DNA of 64,000 nt from Escherichia phage EP1: sequence record OR892555.1, one strand, 5' to 3'. The position numbers were made by a program, and so were the translations under genes. Below are positions 43,370 through 64,000 of this stretch, piece after piece (the first letter of the stretch is position 1; each line of letters opens with the position of its first letter). Under the pieces are notes generated by a model, which saw only the letters and a program-made list of their open reading frames with translations, was not told the origin of the DNA and made no database searches.

Positions 43370-43371
43370 AA

Positions 43372-44397: not shown

Positions 44398-44468
44398 TGG
44401 TACTCCATATCGGATTCGAACCGATACATAACACAGATTTTAAGTCTGGCCTCTCTGCCAATTGGAGT
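44398..44468 (-). tRNA. tRNA-like gene, anticodon loop reads UAA (Leu-type) but D-arm appears truncated
   Basis: Perfect T-arm ATCGG-ATTCGAA-CCGAT and 6-bp acceptor; only about 10 nt available for the D-arm. Confidence 0.4.
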
Positions 44469-44478
44469 AATGGAGCAT

Positions 44479-44554
44479 TGGCGGGGGATGTTGGAATTGA
44501 ACCAACTTCTTCGATTTCAAAGACCGAGGTTTTAACCTTGTAAACTAATCCCCT
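44479..44554 (-). tRNA. tRNA-Gln (anticodon UUG)
   Basis: T-arm GTTGG-AATTGAA-CCAAC; anticodon loop CUUUGAA; D-stem GTTT/AAAC. Confidence 0.6.
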
Positions 44555-44562
44555 TTAAATCT

Positions 44563-45120: not shown

Positions 45121-45140
45121 TTTAAATAGCCTCTTTAAAT

Positions 45141-45216
45141 TGGTGCAGAATAAGGGATTCGAACCCCTATTAACAGCTTCGTAGACTGTTGCTCTATCCA
45201 TTTGAACTAATCCTGC
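45141..45216 (-). tRNA. tRNA-Arg (anticodon ACG)
   Basis: T-arm AAGGG-ATTCGAA-CCCCT; anticodon loop CUACGAA. Confidence 0.6.
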
Positions 45217-45330
45217 TTCCCTACGAGAACACCATACAGTTTTTCACAAACTTTGTTTTTACGTCTGTTTAGGTATGACGCTCTAAACTTTTTTGCGATG
45301 GAGTTATTGCTCATAGTGCTCTCCTCAAAT

Positions 45331-45408
45331 TGGTGTTCCAAGACGGATTCGAACCGTCACTAATACAAGGTTTGAGCTTGCATCCTCTGCCAATTGGGAT
45401 ACTGGAAC
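45331..45408 (-). tRNA. tRNA with anticodon CAA (Leu-type) but short variable region
   Basis: Well-formed cloverleaf in reverse complement (acceptor GTTCCAG/TTGGAAC, D-loop AATTGGCAG, T-loop TTCGAAT); anticodon loop CUCAAAC; 78 nt. Confidence 0.55.
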
Positions 45409-45410
45409 AT

Positions 45411-45485
45411 TGGTACTCGCTGAAGGAATTGAACCTTCTTTACCAACTTGTAAGGATGGGGCTTTACCGTATAAACTAAGCGAGT
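45411..45485 (-). tRNA. tRNA-Val (anticodon UAC)
   Basis: Acceptor ACTCGCT/AGCGAGT perfect; T-arm GAAGG-AATTGAA-CCTTC; anticodon loop CUUACAA. Confidence 0.65.
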
Positions 45486-45490
45486 ATGAA

Positions 45491-45578
45491 AAGAGGTCTG
45501 AAGTTGTGCCGCTAACTCAACTCCGTGGAATTTGTTACGGTCTTCAGTTGACTCAAGCGGTCTTTCACTCGACCTCTG
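45491..45578. ncRNA. structured element with acceptor-like terminal stem but no T-loop (candidate small RNA or degenerate tRNA)
   Basis: AGAGGTC (45492-45498) pairs with GACCTCT (45571-45577); internal hairpin CTGAAG...CTTCAG; fills a tRNA-sized gap in the array. Confidence 0.3.
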
Positions 45579-45581
45579 AAA

Positions 45582-45658
45582 TGGTGCTGCTCACAGGACT
45601 CGAACCTGCATTTCCATCCTTACAAGGGATGTGTAATAGCCAATTATACGAAAGCAGC
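45582..45658 (-). tRNA. tRNA-Thr (anticodon UGU)
   Basis: T-arm ACAGG-ACTCGAA-CCTGC; anticodon stem CATCC/GGATG with loop CUUGUAA. Confidence 0.7.
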
Positions 45659-45664
45659 ATTGTT

Positions 45665-45739
45665 TGGAGCATCCAGAGGGAATCGAACCCTCAACCTCAG
45701 TTTGGAAGACTGTAATTTTCCCGTTTAAACTATGGATGC
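45665..45739 (-). tRNA. tRNA-Gly (anticodon UCC)
   Basis: Acceptor GCATCCA/TGGATGC perfect; T-arm GAGGG-AATCGAA-CCCTC; anticodon loop CUUCCAA. Confidence 0.65.
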
Positions 45740-45745
45740 ACTAAT

Positions 45746-45821
45746 TGGTGGAGAAGCAGGGAATTGAACCCTGTACTTAAGTTTGCAAAACTTATGTTTT
45801 AACCATGTAAACTACATCCCC
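45746..45821 (-). tRNA. tRNA-Ala (anticodon UGC)
   Basis: T-arm CAGGG-AATTGAA-CCCTG; anticodon stem TAAGT/ACTTA with loop UUUGCAA. Confidence 0.65.
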
Positions 45822-45827
45822 AATGTT

Positions 45828-45903
45828 TGGTACAGGTGGAGGGAATTGAACCCATCATCTTACTGATTAAGAGTCAGCCGCATAACCATTTTGCTACACC
45901 TGC
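45828..45903 (-). tRNA. tRNA-Lys (anticodon CUU), tentative
   Basis: T-loop AATTGAA with GGG/CCC stem; anticodon loop CUCUUAA; acceptor ACAGGTG/CACCTGC. Confidence 0.55.
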
Positions 45904-45910
45904 ATTAATT

Positions 45911-45988
45911 TGGTAGGAGACAAGGGATTCGAACCCTCAAACACCAACTTCTAAGGATGGTAGGTTTACCAATTACCGTCAATCTCCC
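45911..45988 (-). tRNA. tRNA with anticodon UAG (Leu-type) but short variable region, structure partly unresolved
   Basis: T-arm AAGGG-ATTCGAA-CCCTC; acceptor with two G-U pairs; anticodon loop CUUAGAA; D-loop AATTGGTAA. Confidence 0.45.
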
Positions 45989-46052
45989 ATTAAATCTTTG
46001 TAGAGAACTGCTAAGACGCCAAAGCAACAATGGTATCAAATGCCTTAACAAT

Positions 46053-46080
46053 TCTCTAAAAAGACCTAACTGGTCTTTGC
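46053..46080 (-). terminator. hairpin, possible minus-strand terminator inside the tRNA array (weak)
   Basis: AAAGACC-taact-GGTCTTT stem followed by short U-run on the minus strand. Confidence 0.3.
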
Positions 46081-46229
46081 ATAGTCTTGTTTAATCCGGT
46101 GACTATAACCTTTGGAGAGCTTGATATTATCTCTTCTCCGTGACACCTACTAGGTGCTTTGTTGTGCGTGTACGACAATACACGAGGGAAACCGAACGCT
46201 GTACCAGAGCGTGGGCTTAAATCTCATTA

Positions 46230-46319
46230 GGCGGTAGATAAAGGAGTCGAACCCTCACCGTATCACTACAATGGCAATTGTTTTCAAGACAATTTGGCTT
46301 CCATTAGCCGCTATCTACC
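46230..46319 (-). tRNA. tRNA-Ser (anticodon UGA), long variable arm
   Basis: Acceptor GGTAGAT/ATCTACC; anticodon stem ATTGT/ACAAT with loop CUUGAAA; about 87 nt. Confidence 0.65.
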
Positions 46320-46332
46320 CCTAATAAGACTG

Positions 46333-46737
46333 TTAAACCTCTAACAGTCCTGCATGAACTTTCCTATGACAGTTAGAACACAGTACAACACATTTTCTAA
46401 CTTCTCTCTTAATAGTCCCTCTAGAGTAAGTCTTTAAATTGCTAGGTTCAAAGTCTTTTTCATTTGGGTCTAAATGGTGGAAGTCTAATGCTACTGGTTC
46501 AGATTCACCACAAACTCTGCATTTGCAGATTCTTTTGTATCGGTTAAGAAACTCTCTGTTTCTTTTTCTGTCAGCTACCGCCCTAATTTTCCTTTTAGCT
46601 TTATAAGTTGGGTCTTCTTGATACTTCTTAGAAGAGTATTTGGATTTGCAATCTTTGCATACTGACTGGTATCCATTACCACGCTTATGAAAACAACTTA
46701 AAGGTTTTTCTTGTGAGCATTTTCTACAAAGTTTCAT
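46333..46737 (-). CDS. HNH homing endonuclease inserted in the tRNA array
   Basis: Cys-rich zinc-binding N-terminus; HNH core DFHHLDPNEK ... CSNCHRKVH. Confidence 0.65.
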   Translation of the reverse strand: MKLCRKCSQEKPLSCFHKRGNGYQSVCKDCKSKYSSKKYQEDPTYKAKRKIRAVADRKRNREFLNRYKRICKCRVCGESEPVALDFHHLDPNEKDFEPSNLKTYSRGTIKREVRKCVVLCSNCHRKVHAGLLEV

Positions 46738-46751
46738 ACAAGTACCTATTC

Positions 46752-46822
46752 TGGCAGGGGTGTAGAGATTCGAACTCTAATCAAGAATTTTGGAGACTCT
46801 ATTGCTGCCTTAGCTCACCCCT
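46752..46822 (-). tRNA. tRNA-Trp (anticodon CCA), tentative
   Basis: Acceptor AGGGGTG/CACCCCT perfect; T-arm TAGAG-ATTCGAA-CTCTA; anticodon loop CUCCAAA; short D-arm. Confidence 0.6.
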
Positions 46823-46993
46823 ATTAACACTATAATTCGAAGCTTACCGTATTGTCACAACACTGTCAAGCCTCTTCTCAGATTATTTACATGTTCTGGA
46901 AAACATGAGATACAGACCACCTCCTTATGAAGTTGACTCATCTGAATCAACACGGAGACCCGCTAAGGTCGTCTAAGTAATCTGCTAACTAAT

Positions 46994-47070
46994 TGGCACA
47001 CCCTACAGGGCTCGAACCTGTAACTCAGTGCTTAGAAGGCACTTGCTCTATCCAATTGAACTAAGGGTGC
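46994..47070 (-). tRNA. tRNA-Arg (anticodon UCU)
   Basis: T-arm ACAGG-GCTCGAA-CCTGT; anticodon stem AGTGC/GCACT with loop CUUCUAA. Confidence 0.7.
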
Positions 47071-47320
47071 ATTCTTATCTTTAAAGGCTCTCTTAGAAAA
47101 CCCTTAAAGATGCCCACCTTATTAATCATACCGTGGGCGAGTACGCCAAATTCTTTGATGAGGGGTTGGAAGACCTCACTGGTGTTTAGCCTATTAAGCT
47201 ACTGCCAGAAAAACATTATCGTTTGCATTTATTTTAGTTTGCAAAAATAGACGCTACGCTAACGAAAACTAAGGTTACTATAAAGTGGTCACATCTGAAT
47301 GTCAACAACTTTATCGAATT

Positions 47321-47396
47321 TGGTAGTGGTAGCAGGAATCGAACCTGCGATGTTCGGTTATCAGCCGAGTGTTATGACCGTCTTAACTATACCACC
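47321..47396 (-). tRNA. tRNA-Ile (anticodon GAU)
   Basis: T-arm GCAGG-AATCGAA-CCTGC; anticodon loop CUGAUAA. Confidence 0.6.
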
Positions 47397-47398
47397 AT

Positions 47399-47475
47399 TG
47401 GAGGTTCAGATGGGATTCGAACCCACATTCATAGGGCTTATGAAACCCTTGCATTACCTTATCTGCGACTGAACC
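47399..47475 (-). tRNA. tRNA-Met (anticodon CAU), G-C-rich anticodon stem
   Basis: Acceptor GGTTCAG/CTGAACC perfect; T-arm ATGGG-ATTCGAA-CCCAC; anticodon stem AGGGC/ACCCT with loop UUCAUAA. Confidence 0.65.
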
Positions 47476-47554
47476 ATAATAAGTTGCCCTTTGGAGAAGA
47501 ACTATTGAGTGGGTGTTTCCAGCCGCGCAGGTGTTCTTCAGTTAAGGGCGAATT
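47476..47554. ncRNA. structured element with acceptor-like terminal stem but no T-loop (candidate small RNA)
   Basis: TTGCCCT (about 47484-47490) pairs with AGGGCGA (about 47544-47550); shares a TTCAGTT motif with the element at 45491. Confidence 0.25.
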
Positions 47555-47630
47555 TGGTAGGAGTGGAGGGATTCGAACCCGTCGCCTGTCAGATTAAAAG
47601 TCTGCCGCATCACCATTCTGCTACACTCCC
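47555..47630 (-). tRNA. tRNA-Lys (anticodon UUU)
   Basis: T-loop ATTCGAA with GGG/CCC stem; anticodon stem TCAGA/TCTGC with loop CUUUUAA. Confidence 0.65.
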
Positions 47631-47775
47631 ATTAAATCATCTTTGCAGTAACCTACGCAAACCTTGCTAAAGGGTTTGTAGAGTCATTTCCTATTAAGCT
47701 AATCTAGAATCATGCTAAGGAAATTCATCGGCACTCATGGGACGACATTTAGCTCCATAAGCCACTGCAAAGAGG

Positions 47776-47907
47776 ATTACCAGACCGTTGTTTTATCTTA
47801 AGTGCTCCCATTACACCAACACGCCGTAACGTGTGAAGGAATCGAACCTTCGCCTTTTCTTTACCAGAGAAATAGATTGTTTAATACTTGCTGTAAACGG
47901 TCTTCTG
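47776..47907 (-). ncRNA. tRNA-like RNA lacking a canonical acceptor stem, enclosed by a long-range stem (candidate Y-RNA-like or pseudo-tRNA)
   Basis: Minus strand reads AGACCGTT...[anticodon-like arm TTTCT-CTGGTAA-AGAAA][T-arm GAAGG-TTCGATT-CCTTC][hairpin ACACG-TTACGG-CGTGT]...AACGGTCT; ends pair over 8 bp. Confidence 0.4.
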
Positions 47908-47919
47908 TAAATTTGTTGA

Positions 47920-47993
47920 GCCAGACCAAGTTTTAAATTATTCAAATTAATTGGCTTGAAATTTTTAAGTTGGCTTGCTGAATTTGGTCTTCT
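47920..47993 (-). repeat. hairpin spacer module, copy B1 (CAGAAGACCAA ... TTGGTCTGG)
   Basis: AGACCAA (47922-47928) complementary to TTGGTCT (47983-47989); conserved flanks shared with copies at 47779, 48388, 48544. Confidence 0.5.
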
Positions 47994-48055
47994 GCTCCTT
48001 TAAAGAATACTCGTAAGAACTCTTTAAGGGATGGGCTAAAAAGCCCTCTCAAATT

Positions 48056-48133
48056 TGGCGGTTACGAAGGGATTCGAACCCTCATCATCTCCCGTGACAG
48101 GGGAGTATTTTAACCAGATTAAACTACATAACC
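48056..48133 (-). tRNA. tRNA-Asp (anticodon GUC)
   Basis: T-arm AAGGG-ATTCGAA-CCCTC; anticodon stem CTCCC/GGGAG with loop CUGUCAC. Confidence 0.7.
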
Positions 48134-48139
48134 TTTGTT

Positions 48140-48227
48140 TGGTGCGCCGTGAAGGAGTCGAACCTACCGAGTCATAATGACAAGTGATTTACAGTCACCA
48201 CCGCTTCCATCTACGGGATAACGACGC
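48140..48227 (-). tRNA. tRNA-Tyr (anticodon GUA), long variable arm
   Basis: 88 nt; T-arm GAAGG-AGTCGAA-CCTAC; anticodon loop CUGUAAA. Confidence 0.65.
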
Positions 48228-48297
48228 ATTTTATTCTATTCAGGCTAAGGACTTGCACCTTACAAATCGGTGAGCATTACGCTTCTCTCCCAAATCT

Positions 48298-48374
48298 TGG
48301 CGGTGAGTTAGGGATTCGAACCCTATACCATTCGGTTAACAGCCGACCGCACATGCCTTATGTGCTTCCTCACC
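48298..48374 (-). tRNA. tRNA-Asn (anticodon GUU)
   Basis: T-arm TAGGG-ATTCGAA-CCCTA; anticodon loop CUGUUAA. Confidence 0.7.
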
Positions 48375-48387
48375 ATGTTTAGTATTG

Positions 48388-48449
48388 CCAGACCGTATCT
48401 TTTCATTTTTTCCTATAAAAATTTTGAGATTGCTGTAAACGGTCTTCTG
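48388..48449 (-). repeat. hairpin spacer module, copy A2 (CAGAAGACCGT ... ACGGTCTGG)
   Basis: AGACCGT (48390-48396) complementary to ACGGTCT (48439-48445); lies between tRNA-Asn and the CAU tRNA. Confidence 0.5.
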
Positions 48450-48455
48450 CAAATT

Positions 48456-48532
48456 TGGAGGCGGGTGTTGGAGTCGAACCAACCGTTACCATGCTAATGA
48501 GACATGTGAGACACCCTTTCTCTATACCCGCG
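48456..48532 (-). tRNA. tRNA with anticodon CAU (Met, fMet or Ile-lysidine type)
   Basis: T-arm GTTGG-AGTCGAA-CCAAC; D-stem GAGA/TCTC; anticodon loop CUCAUUA; position 1-72 mismatched. Confidence 0.6.
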
Positions 48533-48543
48533 ATTCTTAATGA

Positions 48544-48607
48544 CCAGACCAAGTTTTATTTTCTATAAGCGAAGAAAGTTTTTTAACTTGCTGAATTTGG
48601 TCTTCTG
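48544..48607 (-). repeat. hairpin spacer module, copy B2 (CAGAAGACCAA ... TTGGTCTGG)
   Basis: AGACCAA (48546-48552) complementary to TTGGTCT (48597-48603). Confidence 0.5.
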
Positions 48608-48614
48608 TCAAATT

Positions 48615-48689
48615 TGGAGTCGTAGACGGGATTCGAACCCGCGAGCAACTGATTGAAGGTCAGGTGGCTAACCATTTGCCTTCTACGAC
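48615..48689 (-). tRNA. tRNA-Glu (anticodon UUC), tentative (C at position 33)
   Basis: Acceptor GTCGTAG/CTACGAC perfect; T-arm ACGGG-ATTCGAA-CCCGC; anticodon loop CCUUCAA. Confidence 0.55.
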
Positions 48690-48696
48690 ATTAATT

Positions 48697-48773
48697 TGGT
48701 CTCCGTTGAGGGAGTTGAACCCTCGACCCCTTGCTCCCAAAGCAAGTGCTCTGCCAAACTGAGCTAAACGGAA
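48697..48773 (-). tRNA. tRNA-Pro (anticodon UGG)
   Basis: T-arm GAGGG-AGTTGAA-CCCTC; anticodon stem CTTGC/GCAAG with loop UUUGGGA. Confidence 0.7.
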
Positions 48774-54904: not shown

Positions 54905-55241
54905 GTTACACGTTGTTGTTTACAAGAGCTTTGCGGATATGCAGAATGCTTTGACTTCACAAGTTGATAAGCACCGTTCAAGGCTCTTTATCATGTGTGA
55001 TTTAGGAGATTACCAGCAACCTAAAGAGTTTAAATACAAAGATGGTGTCAGAGTCTTACAGTTTGAGGATAGCGTAACAGTTTTCGTCAAGCATGACCTT
55101 CCAGCAAAACACATAGGTATGTTTGAGTACTACATTTACCGCCATACAAATATGCGTGGTGATGATATCAAGATTTCTTCTTTAGAGGTCTTTGAAACTC
55201 CTAACACACAACTTAAAAAATATTTAGTGAGGAAACTATAA
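54897..55241 (+). CDS. hypothetical protein
   Basis: Start trimmed to MTKLHVV. Confidence 0.35.
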   Translation: MTKLHVVVYKSFADMQNALTSQVDKHRSRLFIMCDLGDYQQPKEFKYKDGVRVLQFEDSVTVFVKHDLPAKHIGMFEYYIYRHTNMRGDDIKISSLEVFETPNTQLKKYLVRKL

Positions 55242-55831
55242 TGTCTGAAGAAGTAAAGCCAGAGAATCAAGAAGAATTTATGCCACGAGTTACCCTTGTG
55301 CAACATTTTGGTAACATTGAAGGTATTCTTGCAGCATTCCAACCAACTGTTAACTCACCTGCAAAGGTTTGTACAGTGACTATGAACGTTAACAACATAT
55401 CTGCGTGTGTTATCGAAGAAGTTCAGTACTTCAAGTATAACGACAAAGAAGTTGATGCAGCACTTTTGAAGTATCGTGCAACTCTTGACAAGGATATTAA
55501 CCACCGTGACGTAGTTTCACTGTTTGGTGACTTGCATAAGCTGCTTGAAAAGGTTCTTAAGCGTACATACTACATGAATAGTGGTGCAATCATTACTACG
55601 TACATTTCACCTTGCATTACTGAACCAGTTCTGACAGATGATGCACAGTTCTACGTGACCGCTGCTTCTAGTCCTGATTGGTGGATGAAAAACAATGCTC
55701 TGAAGACTGTTGTTGAAGCTATCCGTGAACATATTCCTGGGTTTAGCCCTTGGCGTGGTGCTAAAGATGACTTCATCTCCATGCTTGAGAATGAACGAAA
55801 CAGACGTAGTGCATTACTGCCTAAAAAATAA
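55241..55831 (+). CDS. hypothetical protein (196 aa)
   Basis: ORF track. Confidence 0.4.
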   Translation: MSEEVKPENQEEFMPRVTLVQHFGNIEGILAAFQPTVNSPAKVCTVTMNVNNISACVIEEVQYFKYNDKEVDAALLKYRATLDKDINHRDVVSLFGDLHKLLEKVLKRTYYMNSGAIITTYISPCITEPVLTDDAQFYVTAASSPDWWMKNNALKTVVEAIREHIPGFSPWRGAKDDFISMLENERNRRSALLPKK

Positions 55832-55833
55832 GC

Positions 55834-55863
55834 TTGACAGCAGTATACATGTTTTTATATGAT
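55834..55863 (+). promoter_or_regulatory. sigma70-like promoter
   Basis: TTGACA (55834-55839), 18-nt spacer, TATGAT (55858-55863). Confidence 0.45.
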
Positions 55864-55890
55864 GGGGCTACTTAAGGGTAGTCCCTTTTT
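55864..55890 (+). terminator. terminator-like hairpin immediately after the promoter
   Basis: GGGGCTAC-ttaag-GGTAGTCCC followed by TTTTT. Confidence 0.4.
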
Positions 55891-55909
55891 CATATGCGAG
55901 GAAAGTAAA

Positions 55910-56602
55910 ATGAAAGTACAAAAAGGTGATGTAATAGCTATTCGCGTCCTTCATGGTCTAGCAACAAAACATGACACAGTTTATGCTGACGTAACATTTG
56001 TATCAGGTAATGGAAGAGTATACTTCAAACCAAGAGCTAATATGCGTTTTCTTGTTGACCGTCGCGGAAAGGTTGAGAATGGAATCTACGCTGGTCAAGT
56101 GTACTCAACCGATGAGTTTGGCAAAGGCATATTCACAGGTACTTGGCGAGGTATTTTAACACTTGGGCTATGTACAAGTATGAAATCTGAAGAAGCTGAA
56201 GAAGTATGTGAAGAAACCTTTGAAGCACCTGTCATTAATGCTGAAGACCTCCCTAAACATGACTATGGTGCAGCACGTTTCACAACTAAGGCAGATGCTA
56301 ATGGGGCAGCTTCAGTAGTTGTCGACAAAGCCCAAGACTTCTTCAAAGCTTTCTCTTCAAGTAACCAACATCATCACCACTTCAATCCTCAAACAAAACT
56401 TGATTCAGTGTTAACTAGTAAATGTGAAGATGCTAAGAAGTTGGCTAAAGAGGTTTATGAAGCTTCTTTTACAGCAAGTGAAGTGATTGAAGAGAATCAG
56501 TTTGAAAAGGTCATTCGTACAATGATGAAGGCTGGTTTAACACCTTATCAGATTGCTGAAGAGATTCAACGTCAGTTCTACAACGCTATGGTGAACGAAT
56601 GA
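55910..56602 (+). CDS. hypothetical protein
   Basis: Start trimmed to MKVQKGD (RBS GAGGAAAG) so it follows the hairpin. Confidence 0.4.
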   Translation: MKVQKGDVIAIRVLHGLATKHDTVYADVTFVSGNGRVYFKPRANMRFLVDRRGKVENGIYAGQVYSTDEFGKGIFTGTWRGILTLGLCTSMKSEEAEEVCEETFEAPVINAEDLPKHDYGAARFTTKADANGAASVVVDKAQDFFKAFSSSNQHHHHFNPQTKLDSVLTSKCEDAKKLAKEVYEASFTASEVIEENQFEKVIRTMMKAGLTPYQIAEEIQRQFYNAMVNE

Positions 56603-56820
56603 AAAAATTTACAACACTTGGTGAGTACTGGATGCTTGCTGCTACAGAATCATACAGGAAAGCCAAAAAGACTAAACAGTGCTATGGTAAGAAAGCTGAA
56701 GGTGATATTCTGTACTGCACAGTGTATGATGGAATGCCTCATGTTACACCAAGAGGTAAAGCTTTCAAACGTCTGATGGATATTGAGTGGAATGCTCGTT
56801 TAGAGAGGGTAGCAAAATGA
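56599..56820 (+). CDS. hypothetical protein (73 aa)
   Basis: ORF track; ATGA overlaps on both sides. Confidence 0.35.
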   Translation: MKKFTTLGEYWMLAATESYRKAKKTKQCYGKKAEGDILYCTVYDGMPHVTPRGKAFKRLMDIEWNARLERVAK

Positions 56821-57323
56821 TTTATGAAGATAGCCGTGATGTAATTTCTTATCAGAAATCTCAACACCATGTCTCTATCAAGATTGTCAAACCTGATGGT
56901 GAAGAAGGTGTTATCTCTCACTTTGGAGGCGACAATTGGTTTGGCACAGGGTGCTTTGAAGGTTACAGTAAAGAATACCTGAAAGCATTCTACCGAGACT
57001 TTAGCAGTGACTACAATGAACTGATTGATGTGAAGAATAAGTGTACAGCCAGTGAGTACAAAGTCAGGGGTTGGGCTGGAATGATTCTGATGCTTGGTAT
57101 TTTCCTTCTGATGATTTGTGCAATCTCCTTCATGGGCTTCTACACCCAAGATTTAACACTGAATCAGACCGAAAAGAAAATAGGTGAAATTTGGTTCTTG
57201 TATGTCCTTCCAATTGCTGGTATGATTTCTGCCTATTGGAGAATGAAGGTTCATAAGAAACGACTTGTGGACGCTGAGAATAAATTTGAAGAGGTAAGTA
57301 AAGAATGCAACCTAAGATTTTAG
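56817..57323 (+). CDS. membrane protein (two predicted TM helices)
   Basis: Start trimmed to MIYEDS; hydrophobic segments WAGMILMLGIFLLMICAISFMGFY and IWFLYVLPIAGMISAYW. Confidence 0.4.
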   Translation: MIYEDSRDVISYQKSQHHVSIKIVKPDGEEGVISHFGGDNWFGTGCFEGYSKEYLKAFYRDFSSDYNELIDVKNKCTASEYKVRGWAGMILMLGIFLLMICAISFMGFYTQDLTLNQTEKKIGEIWFLYVLPIAGMISAYWRMKVHKKRLVDAENKFEEVSKECNLRF

Positions 57324-57397
57324 CTGTATGTATCCGCTATGCAATTGCTGATATGATTAATCAGGCAATCCTGAAAGATGCTTATAAGGAGTGATAA

Positions 57398-57625
57398 ATG
57401 ATTAAGACACCTATCCAGCCATTCGGCTTTAGCTCTCTGAACGAACTGAAAGAGCACCTTGACAAGAACTACTACAACGAACAACCTGTAACGGTTCTTA
57501 AAGCTGACCTTTCAAAACTTCTGGACATTGCTATTGAAGCTACTGTAGAATCAAAACCAGAAGTTGAGAAGAAAGCTGAAAAGAAAACGAAGAAGACTGA
57601 GAAGAAATCTGAGGATTCTGAGTAA
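57398..57625 (+). CDS. hypothetical Lys/Glu-rich protein (75 aa)
   Basis: ORF track. Confidence 0.35.
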   Translation: MIKTPIQPFGFSSLNELKEHLDKNYYNEQPVTVLKADLSKLLDIAIEATVESKPEVEKKAEKKTKKTEKKSEDSE

Positions 57626-57678
57626 AATCTTGAAGGGGTTACTTGATAGCCCCTCTTAACCAAACAAGGTAGCAAAAA

Positions 57679-58146
57679 ATGAAACTTAAAGAAATCGTTC
57701 GTAAAGCAATGCTGGACAACTCCACTAAAGATGAGATGTACAAAGAAATCTGTGATAAGTTGAACTGTTCAAGACATGCTGCCAAGGTTCTTGTCGCAAG
57801 TTTTATATGGGAGTGTTCAGAGGCTTATATGAACTATACAGCTTTTGAGAGTTCTCACTTGATAGGCGACATAAAGGTTGGTACAGAGTTCAAAGAGCCT
57901 GAAATGAAACCTTCAGTGAAAGTAGGTAACCTTTATCAGATTAAAGATTTCCAGACTGCACAGATTGTTGCAAAAGGTGAAGTAGAAGCTGTGTACAATG
58001 ATGGTACATACCTCATTAAAATCTTTGAGTATGCTAAGTCATATGCTCACCTTTGTGGAATAAGATTTCTTGTGACGAAAGAAGATTTAGTTATGTCATC
58101 TGGTGATAAAGCTTATGCTGTACCACATTATGAAATTGTACGATGA
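57679..58146 (+). CDS. hypothetical protein (155 aa)
   Basis: ORF track. Confidence 0.4.
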   Translation: MKLKEIVRKAMLDNSTKDEMYKEICDKLNCSRHAAKVLVASFIWECSEAYMNYTAFESSHLIGDIKVGTEFKEPEMKPSVKVGNLYQIKDFQTAQIVAKGEVEAVYNDGTYLIKIFEYAKSYAHLCGIRFLVTKEDLVMSSGDKAYAVPHYEIVR

Positions 58147-58826
58147 AGAGTCTTATGGGACACCTTCGCAGGATGAATTGGACGAACTTGAAAGATACGG
58201 TTCTCCTTCGGAAGAAGAAAAAGATTCAATCTGATGAATGGTCAAAACTTACTAAGAAGTGTTTTCAGGATTTGATAGATATGGAAAAACAATTTGAGTT
58301 AGAGAGAAAGTACTTGGTACTGAGTTTGGAAGATATTGATAACTATCTTTCACCAGAATGCAGAGACCAGCTTCAACAAATTGTAATGTCACTGAGGCAT
58401 TCAAGAGAACTTGTAGATGGTAAAGAGCCACTTGAAGGTATCTTTGTTAAGAACTCTTATCCGTTCTATAAAGATACTTTGCAGAAACTTGAAATGTACG
58501 TTAAACAGCAGAACCGTAAAGAGTTCACTATGGTTTCTCTTGGTGGACAACAAATGCTTGTTATGGAGGATATCAATCCTAAACGAGTTAACAGAGGTGT
58601 TTGTATCAAGGTCACAGGTAAAGAAGAATTTGTTGATTATGACATACTCAGACATATTATAGATGGTTTGGGTGCTGTACTGAACATGAATGAATACCAT
58701 ATTAGTTCACACCCAATTAAGGGTGACCAGATAATGATTCAGGTAAGAGAACGTCATAATGGGTTCACACACTTCTTCCAGACTTCTAAAACTTCATTGC
58801 AAGCTATGCTTAGTGAAGTGATGTAA
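58143..58826 (+). CDS. hypothetical protein (227 aa)
   Basis: ORF track; last gene of the plus-strand block. Confidence 0.4.
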   Translation: MKSLMGHLRRMNWTNLKDTVLLRKKKKIQSDEWSKLTKKCFQDLIDMEKQFELERKYLVLSLEDIDNYLSPECRDQLQQIVMSLRHSRELVDGKEPLEGIFVKNSYPFYKDTLQKLEMYVKQQNRKEFTMVSLGGQQMLVMEDINPKRVNRGVCIKVTGKEEFVDYDILRHIIDGLGAVLNMNEYHISSHPIKGDQIMIQVRERHNGFTHFFQTSKTSLQAMLSEVM

Positions 58827-58833
58827 AACTCTA

Positions 58834-58882
58834 CAGCCCCTTAAAATGGATTCGATAGAATCTATCTCATAGGGGCTTTTTA
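58834..58882 (+). terminator. rho-independent terminator with large structured loop
   Basis: AGCCCCT (58834-58840) pairs with AGGGGCT (58870-58876) then TTTTT; loop holds GATTCGATAGAATCTATC. Confidence 0.5.
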
Positions 58883-60420
58883 TTGAGTAAAATAATTTTT
58901 ATAAAATTTGGGATTCACTACGTTCATCTTGGGTCACCATATCATGTGATAAAATATCTACCCCTCTTAACAGTCTACTTAATCTTACTCTCTATATAGT
59001 TATATAGTACTATATAGTATCTTAGTCTCTTAACAGTGAGTCTCTATAGCACTCTGTATAGCCCTTCTAAATAGCCCTCTATAAAGCCCTCTAATCAATC
59101 CTCTTCCAAACCTATACAATCCCTTAACCATCTCTTCATAGCTCCTTAGAAGCCCCTATACCCATCTTAATCTCTAGGTAAAAGATAGTACCCTCTATAG
59201 GGTGTTCACTAGGTTCTACTAACCCTCTATATAGACTGTTTTAGCTAACTAAACAGGTATTACCTTCTAAGGCTTATCCTACAAGGTCTAACACGGTACT
59301 AACAAGGTATCTTATAAGCCTGTATTTACCTGTTTTATACAGAATACTATATAGATATTTATGCAACTATTAAAATTTTTATAAAATAGAACTGTCAAGT
59401 CACTTTTTAGGGTCTTGAGAGCAACTCAAAAATATCTGTCTAGGGTGTATATCTGCTTGGTAGCCCTTAACAGCCTTGTAACATACCCTTTGCAAAATTT
59501 TAAAATATCATTAACAATTTCTTTACAACTCTATCAATCTCTTAACATCTCTTCAAAGGTCTTAACAGATTCTTAACAGGACTAACAAGGGTGTAACAAG
59601 TCTCTAACAAGTGCTACATAGACTTTACAGATTCTTAACAGATGACTAACAAGAGCTAACAAGTTAATTTTAAAGGGTTATTTTGTTAAGATAATTAACA
59701 AGTTCCTAACAAGGCTTTAAAGCTTTTAACATACTGTTAACATGGTCACTATCTCTTCTCTTATCGTTCCCTTAACTTCTTAGTGATTCTCTAAACATCC
59801 TCTTAAAAGCTCTCTATAGCTCTATACAGCCTCTTTTAAGCCCCTTGTAAGGTATCTATAGCCCAAGTAACTACAAAGGGCTTTATAGGGCTTTACAGAG
59901 GCTTTAAAGGGTATGCCAAGTTAGCTAACAAGAGTTTAACAAGGTCTTAACAATGATTTAACATACCCCTAACAAGGGTAACTATTCAGGAGTTGTTAAG
60001 AATTTGTTAAGAAAATGTTAAGGGGGCTAGCATTTACGTAACTTTTAAGCCACTTTTAAGCAACTTTATAGCCCCTATAACATACTTTTAAGACACTAAC
60101 AAGCCCTTTTTAGTAGTTCACAAGGTGACTAACGAGATGATAAAGCTTGATACCTTATAAGATTCTTTTAAGGCCATAGAAAGCTCTATAAAGGGCTTTT
60201 AAGAGTGGGTTAATATGATTGCTTAAGTTAGGTTGATAAGCTGTTATAGGGCTTTATAGAGCGTTTTAGAGGGTTGCCCTTCCCTTTGGGTTATGGGCTT
60301 ATATTTTAGGGAAAGAATAGTTGATTTGATAAGAGAATATAGAGTAAGCTATAGAGTTATTGTTCTAAATGTATGAGATAGATTCTATCGAATCTGTGAT
60401 ATGAGTCTGTATAGACGTAA
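58883..60420. repeat. ORF-free region of degenerate short repeats (CTAACAAG, CTTAACAG, CTCTATAG, GGCTTTATAG)
   Basis: No ORF of 60 aa or more in any frame across about 1.6 kb; stop-containing 8-10 bp motifs recur dozens of times. Confidence 0.55.
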
Positions 60421-60496
60421 AAAAGCCCCTATGCGATAGATTCTATGAAGGTAATTCATTACCTAAATCACTATCGAATCCATAGAAAGGGGCTGT
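60421..60496 (-). terminator. rho-independent terminator, mirror image of the 58834 terminator
   Basis: AGCCCCT (60424-60430) pairs with AGGGGCT (60488-60494); U-run on minus strand (plus-strand AAAA at 60421-60424); loop holds GATAGATTCTATG and CTATCGAATC. Confidence 0.45.
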
Positions 60497-60537
60497 TAAG
60501 GTATCTGGGGCTATTTTAGCCCCGTTGCGGCGTCTCG

Positions 60538-60786
60538 TTAGTTATGACCGTCCTTGTCATAGTAAAGAGAAATGATTTTATCGTTCCAATAGTGCCAATG
60601 ATTACCATCTTTCACCGCCTCTTGGATAGCTGCAATCCAAAAATCCGATTCAGGGTTATAATCCTTGACAATCTGGCTAACAAGGCTTTTCACCATATCA
60701 AAAGCACTATCTGTACTGATAATGTCAAATTTAACGTCCAGTGAGTAAAAACCATATTCGTTAACAGTTGCGCGGATAGTTGCCAT
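60538..60786 (-). CDS. hypothetical protein (82 aa)
   Basis: ORF track; preceded by conserved leader. Confidence 0.4.
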   Translation of the reverse strand: MATIRATVNEYGFYSLDVKFDIISTDSAFDMVKSLVSQIVKDYNPESDFWIAAIQEAVKDGNHWHYWNDKIISLYYDKDGHN

Positions 60787-60806
60787 TTTTGAACCTCCAG
60801 TTTAGG
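60787..60806 (-). promoter_or_regulatory. conserved leader CCTAAACTGGAG upstream of start codon (copy 1)
   Basis: Minus strand TTTCCTAAACTGGAGGTTCAAAAATG; upstream hairpin GGGGAGGG/CCTTCCCC. Confidence 0.5.
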
Positions 60807-60845
60807 AAAGTGGGGAAGGTCAATCCCTCCCCGTTGATTAGTAAT

Positions 60846-61109
60846 TTACTGCATATTGGCGTATGTTGCAAGCCTTTTTTCGTTGTATTTTGTCAGAATC
60901 TCACAAGACAAAACATCATATTTAGTAATGGCGTTGCTTTTGTCAAGGTCAAAAAAGCTAAACACTTTACCATCTTTGAATCCTACAACTTCATAAGACT
61001 CTTTGATGAGTTCACCGCTAAACATATCACTTTCGACACGGTGAAACAAGGATACATCTTCTTTATCAGTTGCAATCTGTAAAAGTGTGGTTAATTCTAC
61101 ATGTTCCAT
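60846..61109 (-). CDS. hypothetical protein (87 aa)
   Basis: ORF track; conserved leader. Confidence 0.4.
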   Translation of the reverse strand: MEHVELTTLLQIATDKEDVSLFHRVESDMFSGELIKESYEVVGFKDGKVFSFFDLDKSNAITKYDVLSCEILTKYNEKRLATYANMQ

Positions 61110-61131
61110 CTTGATTTCTCCAGTTTAGGAT
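61110..61131 (-). promoter_or_regulatory. conserved leader CCTAAACTGGAG (copy 2)
   Basis: Minus strand ATAATCCTAAACTGGAGAAATCAAGATG; preceded by hairpin GGGGAAG-aaatca-CTTCCCC (61135-61154). Confidence 0.5.
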
Positions 61132-61166
61132 TATGGGGAAGTGATTTCTTCCCCTTGATAGACACT

Positions 61167-61694
61167 TTAAAGATTCGCTATCGTTTCGTCAAGTGAATTT
61201 TCTAAGTTTTTTAAAGATTGTTCGTAAAGTCTAATCCCTCTAGTTAATGCCTCCCCCAACGTAATTTTAAATTTAGTTGTTGGATAGTCACTTGTAAAGA
61301 GATTTTCAACTTCATAGAGTGGGTGTTGTTGGTTACCCGTTCCCATAGCATACATCCCTGTATAGTGGATTGCAATAAAAAGATTATGAGACTTTATAGA
61401 GCGTTCATAGGCCATTTTGTAGCGGTTTAGCTCGTTTTTAGTCGCCTTGATAGCCATTTCATGAATCTCTGCGACGATAGCCATATAATCCGGCAGAATC
61501 ATTGCAACAGCTTTCATAAAGTTGTCAGCGGTCATAATTTTCTGATTTGGGCGATGGATGTAATACTTTTTATCTTCCCCTTTCGTGATGACTGCAAAAG
61601 TTTTATCTTTCAGGGTGAATTCAAAGGTATCTTTGACAGGTTTTTTCATTACATCTTTTGAGCGAATAGTGTTGATTGCTGTAAACTTGTTCAT
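61167..61694 (-). CDS. hypothetical protein (175 aa)
   Basis: ORF track; conserved leader. Confidence 0.4.
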   Translation of the reverse strand: MNKFTAINTIRSKDVMKKPVKDTFEFTLKDKTFAVITKGEDKKYYIHRPNQKIMTADNFMKAVAMILPDYMAIVAEIHEMAIKATKNELNRYKMAYERSIKSHNLFIAIHYTGMYAMGTGNQQHPLYEVENLFTSDYPTTKFKITLGEALTRGIRLYEQSLKNLENSLDETIANL

Positions 61695-61716
61695 CTTTGA
61701 TTCTCCAGTTTAGGAA
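61695..61716 (-). promoter_or_regulatory. conserved leader CCTAAACTGGAG (copy 3)
   Basis: Minus strand TACTTCCTAAACTGGAGAATCAAAGATG. Confidence 0.5.
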
Positions 61717-61896
61717 GTAAGCTTGATTGCTTGATAGATACTATAGGGCTTTTAGAAAGTGATTGCAAGCCCTTTTTAGTCTTATCTATAAAGAATCTTT
61801 TAAGTGATTCCTTTTAGATAAAACCCCCTCGAACAAATGTACTATTGTCAAGGGGTATCGTCAAGTAATTTTTGAAAGTTTTTTGTAAGTTGTTGA

Positions 61897-62238
61897 TTAG
61901 CTTATAAAGATTTTTTCAGGCTTGACGTAGTTCATTTTTTGGCCTTTAAGTAAATCACTCCAGATTAAAGCGGCAATGTGACCATAACCAAATTCACGTA
62001 GTGCTTTCATCGTGTTGACTTTTGTTTCAAATCGTGTTGCGTAGTATTCACTGTTAAGGGTTGTTTTGTTCCCTTCATTGTCTGTATGAATGATTTGCAT
62101 CACATGAAACGGGCTAACATCCTCTCCGCGATTCCATTGCTCAAAGTATTTTAAACACTGCATAGGCGACATATTATCACTTACTCGTGTAGACCATGAC
62201 GAATTTTCTTTATCGGTAATTACGGTTACATGTGCCAT
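61897..62238 (-). CDS. hypothetical protein (113 aa)
   Basis: ORF track; conserved leader. Confidence 0.4.
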   Translation of the reverse strand: MAHVTVITDKENSSWSTRVSDNMSPMQCLKYFEQWNRGEDVSPFHVMQIIHTDNEGNKTTLNSEYYATRFETKVNTMKALREFGYGHIAALIWSDLLKGQKMNYVKPEKIFIS

Positions 62239-62260
62239 CTTTGAATCTCCAGTTTAGGAA
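62239..62260 (-). promoter_or_regulatory. conserved leader CCTAAACTGGAG (copy 4)
   Basis: Minus strand AGCTTTCCTAAACTGGAGATTCAAAGATG; upstream GCCCCAGATAAAGAG box shared with copy 6. Confidence 0.5.
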
Positions 62261-62314
62261 AGCTCTTTATCTGGGGCTTATGGTATCAAGCTTTTAAGCC
62301 CCTTGTAAAGTACT

Positions 62315-62551
62315 TTATTTGTAAATCTCTAAAAATTCATCTTCATTAACATTTTCGTAGTATTCTGCGTTTTCGTCTTCACCTTGTAAGACATAACAGC
62401 CCATTCTAGACGATTTCGGGTATTCTTGTCTAGCAATATTGCAAGCTTCTACCGCGTTTTGTTTAGTTCCTTCAAAGGATTCTAAAACCCCATAATGGCA
62501 ATTATTAGCCCCAGAGCATACAGCAAGCATGAGATAGATTGTAGTTAACAT
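62315..62551 (-). CDS. small protein with signal-peptide-like N-terminus (78 aa)
   Basis: MLTTIYLMLAVCSGANNC hydrophobic N-terminus; lacks the conserved leader, has a GC hairpin upstream instead. Confidence 0.4.
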   Translation of the reverse strand: MLTTIYLMLAVCSGANNCHYGVLESFEGTKQNAVEACNIARQEYPKSSRMGCYVLQGEDENAEYYENVNEDEFLEIYK

Positions 62552-62614
62552 GATTTAAGCCCCTTGCAAGCCCCTATGCGGGGCTTTTTAATGTTGTTAG
62601 TGTGATTGTATGGT

Positions 62615-63172
62615 TTACGCTAAAACGTCGTTTACAGTGCTTTCTGTTAAGCTTTCCTGCATTGCGTCTAGCATGTTGCAATAGATAATTGAACTATCAT
62701 CAGTATTTTGAATAAGGCTTGCAACTTCTTCAAGTTTTTCATCAACATAGCCTAAATTTGGATTTTTTAAGTTAGGTACAAAAAACGGTGAATACATAGC
62801 GTTAAATTCTGTGATGTAAACCTTTTTAATCCAATCTTTATCAAAAGATTCTGTAAAGCTTGCGATATCACTCATATTTTCACAAGACCAATCATCTTGC
62901 AATTCATATTCTGGAATGTCAAGTTCTAAGATAACAATATTTTGAGTTTTCATCTGAAAAGCTGCTGTGATTGTAGCACTATCAAGAGCATTGCGTAAAC
63001 CTTCATTAGTAATTTCTTCAGCATTCATAGAATCAAGGTCATAGAATTTATTAACAGGGTAAACGTAAAAACAACCATCACTATCAGAGCAATTCCAAGC
63101 GCCTGATGGTTTATCACCGCCATTGATGAGGTTTACAAAGTTTTCTTGAGTAGTACCGTGAAAGCATTTCAT
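62615..63172 (-). CDS. hypothetical acidic protein (185 aa)
   Basis: ORF track; conserved leader. Confidence 0.4.
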   Translation of the reverse strand: MKCFHGTTQENFVNLINGGDKPSGAWNCSDSDGCFYVYPVNKFYDLDSMNAEEITNEGLRNALDSATITAAFQMKTQNIVILELDIPEYELQDDWSCENMSDIASFTESFDKDWIKKVYITEFNAMYSPFFVPNLKNPNLGYVDEKLEEVASLIQNTDDSSIIYCNMLDAMQESLTESTVNDVLA

Positions 63173-63193
63173 TTTGAATCTCCAGTTTAGGAA
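63173..63193 (-). promoter_or_regulatory. conserved leader CCTAAACTGGAG (copy 5)
   Basis: Minus strand CCACTTCCTAAACTGGAGATTCAAAATG. Confidence 0.5.
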
Positions 63194-63257
63194 GTGGGCT
63201 TGCTTGCCCGTCTGATAAGTAATTTAAGCTATTTAAAAACCAGTGTCAATAGATTTT

Positions 63258-63662
63258 TTAAAGTTCTGCGTAAATTGCATCACAGATATCACGAAAATCA
63301 TAGCTTGTTAAGTTACGTTGTAACCATGTTGCGAAAAAATCAGCTATTGCAAAATTTGCATCATACTCAACAGACAACCACACTTTTACAGCAAATCGAA
63401 ACATTTTCAAGTCAAGTTCTTTATTCATTACTTTTGATTTGCCCAACATATCAACCATTTCATATTGTGCTCCGTCAAGTGTAACACCTGAAGCAACATT
63501 TGCAAGTGAATTTTTTACGTTTTCAACGTCTAAGATTGCACCTTGAATCTTTCCAATAATGTTGTGTAGTGTTTCATCTGGTGCTGCTGATGTAATTACG
63601 TTGATGCGGTTAACGGTCAAACGTGCTTTTAGGATTGCAGTGTCGCGATTGTTAATAGCCAT
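63258..63662 (-). CDS. hypothetical protein (134 aa)
   Basis: ORF track; conserved leader. Confidence 0.4.
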   Translation of the reverse strand: MAINNRDTAILKARLTVNRINVITSAAPDETLHNIIGKIQGAILDVENVKNSLANVASGVTLDGAQYEMVDMLGKSKVMNKELDLKMFRFAVKVWLSVEYDANFAIADFFATWLQRNLTSYDFRDICDAIYAEL

Positions 63663-63682
63663 TTTTGAATCTCCAGTTTAGG
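63663..63682 (-). promoter_or_regulatory. conserved leader CCTAAACTGGAG (copy 6)
   Basis: Minus strand CACTAACCTAAACTGGAGATTCAAAAATG; upstream GCCCCAGATAAAGAG box. Confidence 0.5.
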
Positions 63683-63837
63683 TTAGTGATAAAATCTCTT
63701 TATCTGGGGCTATACTAGCAAACTTTATAACCCCATGTAAAGCAATTTTTAGACTAAATTTAACTTTTTACCGTTAACAATGATGTAACTTACACCACTA
63801 TTGCTGTAAACATCTTGATAGATTCTGCGTAACTTGC

Positions 63838-64000
63838 CTAAATAGCGTACTTTCCAAGAGGTAGGAATCTTTTTACCGTATCCGGTGGATGTTTTCTGTA
63901 AACCTGCTAATTGCCATTCTAAAATGTGCTGTTCTGCTGTTAACTCTTCAAAGTTTAATACGCCGTCTACATAGTGCTTTAAAGTGACGTTTAAAGTACG
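63838..64000 (-). CDS. hypothetical protein, C-terminal part (gene starts beyond window end)
   Basis: Open minus-strand frame from the window edge to TAG at 63838-63840 (ends ...TSWKVRYAI); not in ORF track because no start lies in the window. Confidence 0.3.

Follow-up and report, generated by a model that had tools for sequence, protein, structure and literature searches.

The right-hand part of a 64,000-nucleotide (nt) stretch of Escherichia phage EP1 DNA (OR892555.1; the whole stretch is referred to here as the window) contains two short hairpins, named site 1 and site 2, each of which is followed by a run of T on the plus strand. Both therefore look like intrinsic terminators on that strand, whereas the genes that surround them lie on the minus strand. 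The locus thus raises the question of what terminator-like structures facing away from the genes are doing in a gene array. A preliminary description of this DNA had offered two answers, namely that the hairpins terminate antisense transcription, or that they act as stabilising stem-loops in the 5' leaders of the minus-strand transcripts. The analysis presented here argues against the first proposal and partly supports the second. In the explanation that is probably correct, site 1 is a promoter of the gene strand seen in mirror image, site 2 is a stem-loop of the sense mRNA, and both belong to cassettes that are repeated through the early region of the phage.

Terminator-like hairpins opposite the early genes

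A reading of positions 61000-64000 confirmed that both hairpins and their T-runs are present where the preliminary description had placed them. On the plus strand, site 1 consists of AGGGCTT (61745-61751), a 15-nt loop, AAGCCCT (61767-61773) and TTTTT (61774-61778); its 7-bp stem is perfect, and its loop is long for an intrinsic terminator. Site 2 consists of AAGCCCC (62568-62574), the loop tatgc, GGGGCTT (62580-62586) and then TTTAATGTTG, with a stem of 7 bp (5 G-C pairs) and a loop of 5 nt, both sizes being canonical for an intrinsic terminator. In the window, TTTTT is found 3' of both stems on the plus strand. Site 1 had a fold energy of -13.3 kcal/mol on the plus strand and -14.1 kcal/mol on the minus strand; for site 2 the corresponding values were -13.8 and -15.2 kcal/mol.

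The whole 64 kb was scanned for perfect stems of at least 6 bp with at least 4 G-C pairs, a loop of 3-16 nt and at least 4 T in 5. Three sites were found on the plus strand, sites 1 and 2 among them; within the array (60537-64000) the plus strand contained two such sites and the sense strand none. Dinucleotide shuffles of the array (n=300) gave a mean of 0.04 sites, and as none of them contained two or more, the observation is real and the presence of two sites in the array exceeds chance. The view that the hairpins did not arise at random and form part of the regions upstream of minus-strand genes was borne out, as was the assignment of the flanking genes, which comprise seven open reading frames (ORFs), to the minus strand (Table 1). 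A consensus terminator scan, limited to loops of 8 nt or less, called site 2 and missed site 1, the loop of which is too long.

By sequence, the window is a member of Suspvirus (Ounavirinae), a Felix O1-like coliphage that is near-identical to Escherichia phage EcSzw-2, and the minus-strand genes are the early small-gene region of the phage. A 221-nt piece around site 2 was 100% identical in EcSzw-2, also a Suspvirus. Escherichia phage SUSP2 matched the last 8 kb of the window with 90% identity and 92% query coverage, and about 250 further Felix O1-like phages also matched this region.

If the plus-strand signatures are taken at face value, both sites would be intrinsic terminators of plus-strand (antisense) transcription into the early array, for instance of late or spurious transcripts. 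The G/C stem followed by TTTTT at both sites is what such terminators would look like, and two of them in 3.5 kb is far above the shuffle expectation. However, neither a plus-strand gene nor a conserved plus-strand promoter lies upstream of them. The plus-strand ORFs in the array are only antisense overlaps of conserved minus-strand genes, and the neighbouring block of plus-strand genes to the left of the array, which ends at 58826, has a terminator of its own, a strong hairpin with a T-run at 58829-58881. Plus-strand promoters that might feed the two sites were sought and rejected, as all candidates were weak (9-of-12 matches), lay within coding sequence and were about as frequent as in shuffles. 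On both strands of 55000-64000 there were 35 promoter-like matches compared to 26.4 +/- 5.3 in shuffles, which is near expectation. Intrinsic terminators, including bidirectional ones, share the G/C-rich stem and the following T-run with the plus strand of sites 1 and 2, but the two sites differ from them by the lack of an upstream transcription unit on that strand and, at site 1, by the 15-nt loop; unlike bidirectional terminators, neither site has runs on both sides.

The putative promoter P2 at site 1

Read on the minus strand, site 1 has the sequence CTAAAAAGGGC-TTGCAA-tcactttctaaaagccc-TATAGT, and the promoter scan matched it at 61768-61740. This putative promoter, P2, lies 45 nt upstream of the ATG of the 175-amino-acid (aa) gene. 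Orthologous sites were compared in 21 named genomes and 14 further distinct IMG/VR sequences (some IMG/VR loci repeat named genomes). The A-run, the TTGCAA hexamer, the 17-nt spacing and a -10 hexamer of TATAGT or TAAATT were kept at every orthologous site, while the sequence of the spacer varied freely. In the relatives, a run of at least four A that ends 3-4 nt before the hexamer was present at 40 of the 41 promoters of the TTGCAA class, the weakest -35 variant here, compared with a background of 12% (12-nt windows). Because of this association, the plus-strand T-run at site 1 is evidently an A-tract that belongs to a class of promoters in which the -35 element is weak. As judged from these conserved features, site 1 itself is a predicted sigma-70-type early promoter with an A-tract, conserved among the relatives and seen in reverse complement.

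The A-tract at P2 probably works as an UP element. It is a run of 5-6 A located 3-4 nt upstream of the -35 hexamer, at approximately -45 to -40, a position that in E. coli promoters is taken by the proximal UP-element subsite. An A-tract upstream of a weak -35 element is reportedly typical of UP-element promoters of the E. coli rrnB P1 type, according to the work of Ross, Estrem and Gourse. At site 1 the likeness to these promoters lies in the A-tract.

A terminator-like structure that overlaps a promoter also recalls the promoter-coupled terminators of bacteria, in which a stem-loop supplies the -35 element, the T-tract forms the spacer and the -10 element follows, all on the same strand (Fletcher et al. 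2026 preprint, doi 10.64898/2026.08.19.745784). Site 1 is similar in that the stem-loop DNA and a neighbouring T/A run double as promoter parts, and in that terminator-like and promoter elements of tandem genes overlap within about 35 bp. It differs in that it looks like a terminator on the opposite strand and in that the run corresponds to the stretch upstream of the -35 element.

The stem at site 1 is intact only in the window, EcSzw-2 and PC79-13. In SUSP2 it contains one A.C pair, and it was missing from all other genomes read; another SUSP2 cassette has the same CTAAAAAGGGCTTGCAA module without a complementary 3' arm. As it is intact in the few closest relatives only, the stem would be a complementarity that arose recently and in this lineage only, with the -35 flank as one arm and the end of the spacer as the other, and most likely has no conserved role. 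The restricted distribution of the stem is unfavourable to an antisense terminator at this site, as are the long loop and the explanation of the T-run as a promoter A-tract. The change in SUSP2, on the other hand, would favour an antisense terminator, as it pairs only on plus-strand RNA.

With regard to the 5' leaders in which the preliminary description had placed both sites, the hairpin at site 1 overlaps the promoter from -35 to -10 and is located upstream of its predicted start. Because the P2 start lies at about 61731-61733, downstream of the hairpin, only transcripts from a second putative promoter further upstream, P1, would carry site 1, and a 5' stabilising role could be applicable to these transcripts only. 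P1 is kept in the relatives as TTGACA-17-TAACTT or TACATT. The stem within P1 is followed by GTTTTAT on the sense strand, so that the hairpin resembles a terminator of sense transcription. The 135-nt leader predicted for P1 transcripts had a fold energy of -36.9 kcal/mol (z = -4.24), and 0 of 200 shuffles were as stable. The stretch between P1 and P2 (61778-61825) was nearly invariant across 23 versions, so that covariation was uninformative, and MAFFT mis-registers the window clade in this alignment. The long hairpin predicted for this stretch begins about 5 nt into the predicted P1 transcript, and one of its outer pairs is U.G, U-A or C-G across phages, and never C.A.

The downstream gene differs in the EcSzw-2 record (MH791400, UNVERIFIED), where only a 198-nt coding sequence is given (6996-7193) compared to the 528-nt ORF for the 175-aa protein in the window. 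The 5' end of the 175-aa gene was searched for in this record and was not found, although its promoter region does not differ from that of the window; the record may contain an indel or a sequencing error.

The stem-loop between two cistrons at site 2

Site 2 is located in the 63-nt spacer between the 185-aa and 78-aa genes, 28 nt past the stop codon of the former and 4 nt before the Shine-Dalgarno sequence of the latter. The promoter scan found no promoter in this spacer, and the leader sequence shared by other genes of the array (described below) is absent from it. The leader position proposed in the preliminary description thus holds only in part, as site 1 coincides with a predicted promoter and site 2 is between two cistrons, without a promoter of its own.

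The five core pairs of site 2 were paired in 16 of 16 aligned sequences, and RNAalifold gave the same helix. A compensatory CG-to-GC change, affecting both sides of one pair, was observed in JLBYU28 and MET-P1-301, and KMM4 had one U.G pair in the stem. A wider set comprised 25 distinct versions with 10 loop variants; 123 of the 125 core cells in this set were Watson-Crick, with one T.G and one A.C. The flanks of the stem differed between clades. On the sense strand, the 11 distinct versions from Suspvirus and Mooglevirus have A4-6 on the 5' side and TT(A/G)CAA on the 3' side, the 11 distinct versions from Felixounavirus have no A-run on the 5' side and TTTT(A/G) on the 3' side, and the three distinct versions of JLBYU28 type have neither. 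According to these alignments, the stem at site 2 is conserved and a terminator signature on either strand is not, and site 2 is apparently a stem-loop kept between two cistrons of the sense mRNA.

Two other possibilities were considered. The flipped run would be explained if site 2 had been inverted in one of the clades, but this was rejected, as the loops align in the same orientation (gcACA, tcACA, gtACA). A hidden promoter that would use the TTGCAA just after the hairpin was also rejected, having no acceptable -10 and a start that would fall inside the gene.

The same comparison bears on the antisense terminators. The T4-6 next to site 2 was kept in all Suspvirus and Mooglevirus versions, in agreement with a function on the plus strand, but it was missing in the Felixounavirus and JLBYU28-type phages, in which the hairpin is kept. 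In addition, other stems of the array carry G.U pairs on the sense strand only. As both sites lack an upstream plus-strand gene and a convincing plus-strand promoter, and as stem and T-run are not conserved together at site 1 or at site 2, the proposal of the preliminary description that these hairpins terminate antisense transcription gained no support and was considered very improbable.

As a stem-loop of the sense mRNA, site 2 most likely acts without the need of a U-tract. It could be a barrier to 3' exonucleases, mark a processing boundary or keep the adjacent Shine-Dalgarno sequence exposed, and a function as a 5' stabilising, intercistronic stem-loop is possible. Intercistronic mRNA stem-loops stabilise upstream cistrons, as do the repetitive extragenic palindromic (REP) hairpins in malE-malF. 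Site 2 resembles these in being short, stable, placed between two cistrons of one operon and kept without a U-tract, and it differs in having no sequence relation to them.

Alternatively, site 2, like other cassette stem-loops, might be an attenuator or terminator in the sense direction that limits read-through from upstream early promoters. Its position between tandem genes would suit this function, GGGGCTTTT(A/G) was found on the sense strand in 11 of 11 distinct Felixounavirus versions, and the stem embedded in P1 is likewise followed by TTTTAT on the sense strand. The same function has been proposed for the stem-loops of promoter-early stem-loop (PeSL) elements, which are known from T4-like phages, and a PeSL stem-loop cut expression about as much as rrnB T1 when placed between a strong promoter and lacZ (PMC2839356). 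In the window and in all Suspvirus and Mooglevirus versions, however, only two T follow the stem (GGGGCTTGCAAGG), making it a poor intrinsic terminator, and efficient termination would silence the 78-aa gene, for which no separate promoter was seen. Sense-direction attenuation was retained as a tentative but rather unlikely explanation; in Felixounavirus, the four U after site 2 may also weakly attenuate read-through in addition to the proposed role of the stem.

Even less credit than to antisense termination was given to a translational switch, of which site 2 would be one half. In such a switch the 5' arm AAGCCCC would pair either with the near GGGGCTT or with the GGGGCTT that overlaps the Shine-Dalgarno sequence, the latter pairing hiding the ribosome-binding site. 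The minimum-energy fold of the sense RNA in the window is in fact the Shine-Dalgarno-occluding form (-15.2 kcal/mol), and a GGCTT-containing repeat follows the hairpin in all relatives. Nevertheless, the alternative pairing was possible in only 81% of cells and showed no compensatory change, the CG-to-GC swap of the JLBYU28 type keeps the near hairpin and breaks the alternative one, and the requirement for a Shine-Dalgarno sequence accounts for most of the repeat. The protein encoded downstream (78 aa; 62315-62551, minus strand) begins with MLTTIYLMLAVCSG and its relatives with MLTTIYLILSIC; this short, hydrophobic N-terminus with a conserved Cys resembles a lipoprotein signal.

Several observations weigh against the interpretation of site 1 as a mirrored promoter and of site 2 as a sense-strand stem-loop. 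The site 2 variant of three relatives (L037, L089 and L106) has A.C on the sense strand, and the A.C pair of site 1 in SUSP2 is G.U on plus-strand RNA, so that wobble asymmetry does not fix the strand at these sites. The non-Watson-Crick cases at sites 1 and 2 thus point both ways, and the working strand is not settled by them. The A4 run next to site 2 was invariant in 11 of 11 Suspvirus and Mooglevirus versions while its neighbours varied, and selection for an antisense T-run at site 2 in this clade is possible. The covariation at site 2 amounts essentially to one event. Lastly, no transcript or start-site data for Ounavirinae were found in the literature searched, and promoter activity and use, transcript starts and ends and the role of the stem-loops in RNA were all inferred from sequence.

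Repeated early cassettes

The setting of the two sites became apparent from a short leader, CCTAAACTGGAG, which contains the Shine-Dalgarno motif GGAG and was present in six copies in the window compared to 0.06 expected. All six times it is followed by 6-10 nt and then ATG. Upstream of the leader are a promoter-like sequence and a stem-loop with G-tract and C-tract arms, and the arrangement of these parts takes several forms. Type A cassettes consist of TTTACA, GGGGYTTA, 8-14 nt with a TAnnnT -10, TAAGCCCC and AGATAAAGAG, the promoter spacer and the -10 being inside the stem-loop. Type B cassettes have TTGACA or TTGCAA, 17 nt, then TAAAGT, TAAATT or TATAGT, and a leader hairpin such as GGGGAGGG..CTTCCCC. 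In a third form the hairpin stands alone in the spacer. The stem is accordingly found across spacer and -10 (type A), in the leader (type B) or over the -35 and spacer (site 1).

Promoter-like sites upstream of the leader, with -35 and -10 separated by 16-18 nt, numbered five in the window and 138 in 19 genomes, of which 65 were of the TTTACA class, 32 of the TTGACA class and 41 of the TTGCAA class. An A-run of at least four was found at 26 of the 32 TTGACA promoters, and the TTTACA promoters are preceded by (A/T)AAAGT(A/G)C. Among the IMG/VR matches listed, multiple copies of the leader 14-mer occurred only on sequences of approximately 54-90 kb, most of them 81-90 kb, like Felix O1-like genomes.

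Pairing in the type A stems was examined in 32 distinct versions, with 240 Watson-Crick pairs, 15 T.G pairs (G.U on sense RNA) and no A.C pair; two of the pairs switch between AT and TA. As the wobble is of the kind that pairs in sense RNA only, this pattern fits a role of the type A stems in read-through transcripts of the sense strand, although a small number of events may account for all T.G cases.

In the favoured explanation, every gene or pair of genes would be preceded by a cassette of four elements: a region that is AT-rich or has an A-tract; a promoter of sigma-70 type (TTTACA, TTGACA or TTGCAA, 17-18 nt, TAnnnT); a G-tract/C-tract stem-loop located within the promoter spacer, over the -10 or within the leader; and the shared leader followed by ATG. 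Sites 1 and 2 are best read on the gene strand, as parts of such repeated promoter and stem-loop cassettes, and the terminator signatures that drew attention to them are largely ordinary.

Comparison of the window with SUSP2 revealed three indels. The alignments on the two sides of each have 17-25 nt of the shared leader in common, and all junctions were in the leader or in a cassette. In Felix O1, the 185-aa gene, site 2 and the 78-aa gene are absent as one missing module, with junctions in two cassettes, and the two genes would be gained and lost jointly as one module. Direct observations are the sequences and how far they are conserved, the patterns of pairing and the junctions of the indels. 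The location of the junctions in cassettes could also indicate that the hairpins act as DNA, in the form of cruciforms, protein-binding palindromes or purely recombination hot-spots, with no role in RNA; recombination within PeSL stem-loops has been mapped in T4-like phages (PMC2839356). But the junctions mapped here are in the shared leader or in type A or type B cassette sequence and not in site 1 or 2, the tolerance of T.G and never A.C in type A stems is an asymmetry expected of RNA and not of DNA cruciforms, and the loop sequence of site 2 varies freely. A role at the DNA level alone was considered the least probable of the explanations weighed.

Two side observations concern the cassettes. 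A putative TTGCAA-class promoter at 60843-60880 on the minus strand is inside the 3' end of the 87-aa gene, and the TAA stop codon of this gene is also the first half of the -10 hexamer. At the head of the array in SUSP2, a 501-bp intergenic region (16903-17403) contains 4-5 copies of TTTTTCATTTTnAAAnnGTGCAGG and includes the sequence given as terminator t13 in the Felix O1 paper.

The cassettes were compared with the PeSLs, which have been described in T4-like phages (Arbiol et al. 2010, PMC2839356; Comeau et al. 2014, PMC4122927), where their 3' end carries a Shine-Dalgarno sequence with a start codon, and where they are clustered among ORFans and give rise to indels. For PeSLs, promoter activity, terminator activity and mini-circles are also reported, from reporter assays and inverse PCR (PMC2839356). 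The cassettes are alike in being repeated intergenic units of roughly 60-100 bp, in having a G/C-tract stem-loop whose position varies (within the spacer, on the -35 or the -10, or further downstream), in ending with a Shine-Dalgarno sequence and start codon, in clustering among small genes of unknown function and in bounding indels between close relatives. Every sequence-level feature of PeSLs was found in the cassettes. They differ from PeSLs in the phage lineage, which is Ounavirinae and not T4-like, in repeat sequences that are unrelated to the published ones, and in that the 12-nt leader CCTAAACTGGAG is the most conserved part and the site of the mapped junctions. In the literature searched, no paper on PeSLs outside T4-like phages was found, and PeSLs were mentioned only in papers on T4-like or unrelated phages. 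The balance of evidence leans slightly towards the view that the early regions of Ounavirinae are built from mobile promoter/stem-loop/leader cassettes of PeSL type, the first outside the T4-like phages, with stem-loops that act on sense RNA. The 12-25 nt of shared leader or cassette sequence would then be the crossover for gain and loss of a gene or gene pair, including the module that contains site 2.

The Felix O1 genome paper listed five promoters, none of which is among the present ones, and left open how transcription passes through many hairpins. The UAB_Phi87 paper gave BPROM counts only, and the wV8 and VpaE1 papers contained nothing on promoters.

Table 1. Positions of the sites, promoters, cassettes and neighbouring features in the window
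Feature	Position	Strand	Remarks
Site 1 hairpin	61745..61773	.	Arms 61745-61751 and 61767-61773; brackets -35 and spacer of P2
A5 tract	61774..61778	-	Ends 4 nt upstream of P2 -35; UP-element-like; same as plus-strand T-run of site 1
P2 -35 hexamer, TTGCAA	61763..61768	-	Scan match; putatively serves 175-aa gene; invariant in all orthologues
P2 -10 hexamer, TATAGT	61740..61745	-	17-nt spacer; predicted start ~61731-61733
Promoter P1 (putative), TTGACG, 17 nt, TACATT	61836..61864	-	Predicted start ~61829; scan match
Stem-loop within P1	61818..61855	-	CCCCTTGA (61848-61855) pairs with TCGAGGGG (61825-61832); -10 in loop
Long imperfect hairpin, predicted	61778..61825	-	5' end of P1 transcript, between P1 and P2
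Leader CCTAAACTGGAG	61703..61714	-	Upstream of ATG at 61694; other copies at 60795, 61118, 62247, 63180 and 63671
Site 2 hairpin	62568..62586	-	Sense AAGCCCC-gcata-GGGGCTT; between 185-aa and 78-aa genes
A-run at site 2	62587..62590	-	Same as plus-strand T-run; 5' of site 2 on sense strand
AAGGGG Shine-Dalgarno region and ATG of 78-aa gene	62549..62565	-	Second GGGGCTT, alternative partner of 5' arm of site 2
Type A cassette	62263..62309	-	TTTACA, then GGGGCTTA..TACCAT..TAAGCCCC, then AGATAAAGAG; predicted start ~62273 (rule of -10 plus 7 nt)
Type A cassette	63696..63741	-	TTTACA, 18 nt, TAGTAT; TG motif; stem GGGGTTAT/ATAGCCCC
Type B cassette	63196..63249	-	TTGACA, 17 nt, TAAATT, then leader hairpin GGGCAAGCAAGCCC; predicted start ~63214
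Hairpin-only intergenic cassette	61135..61154	-	GGGGAAGaaatcaCTTCCCC
TTGCAA-class promoter (putative), A6-GGC-TTGCAA-17-TAAATT	60812..60880	-	Then leader hairpin GGGGAGGG..CTTCCCC; overlaps 3' end of 87-aa gene
Seven early ORFs	60538..63662	-	82, 87, 175, 113, 78, 185 and 134 aa
Long hairpin, then TTTTTT on sense strand	60417..60494	-	Likely terminator of early array

All seven ORFs of the array had full-length PHROG matches, to families of unknown function, and a Pfam search of the same ORFs gave no match. The gene content of the array varies among close relatives, and rIIA and rIIB precede the array in SUSP2 and Felix O1. A protein search of IMG/VR for related loci gave four loci, and GenBank phage records were compared individually instead. 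At gathering thresholds, Rfam matched only tRNAs in the whole window, and no Rfam match with an E value of 1 or less was obtained in 60300-64000. The tRNA cluster, at 43196-48773 on the minus strand, comprises 24 genes according to ARAGORN and 25 Rfam tRNA matches, which is usual among Felix O1-like phages.

Between the converging plus- and minus-strand gene blocks there is an ORF-free gap of approximately 1.55 kb (58880-60420) with dense short repeats phased at 11 nt. YTAACAAG was present 11 times on one strand of this gap, compared to 8.2 +/- 2.8 expected for the whole window, and CTTTTAAG and CTATA(T/A)AG are also repeated. The gap is flanked by two long terminator-like hairpins (58829-58881 and 60417-60496) that are mutually inverted copies, with arms up to 96% complementary. 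SUSP2 and Felix O1 have the same gap, without annotation. An origin, an array of protein-binding sites or a region of genome ends are possible explanations for it.

The findings at sites 1 and 2 call for caution in annotation, as in the AT-rich early regions of phages a promoter A-tract beside a G/C stem mimics a terminator on the wrong strand. The GenBank record of KhF1 (KT184313) has 'Rho-independent terminator' features at 279-299, 1837-1857 and 2996-3016 on the strand opposite the early genes. These might be counted in favour of antisense terminators in this array, but they sit exactly on the leader hairpins GGGGAGGGAATGACCTTCCCC, and the annotation is the same wrong-strand reading, made by software. 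Antisense terminators have thus already entered at least one GenBank record through automatic annotation. Felix O1-like phages are widely used in the typing of Salmonella and E. coli, in biocontrol and in therapy. For these phages, the map of promoters, stem-loops and the common leader provides start sites that can be tested, and predicted strong E. coli promoter and ribosome-binding-site parts that would be ready-made for use. It also suggests a mechanism for the differences in gene content among Felix O1-like phages.

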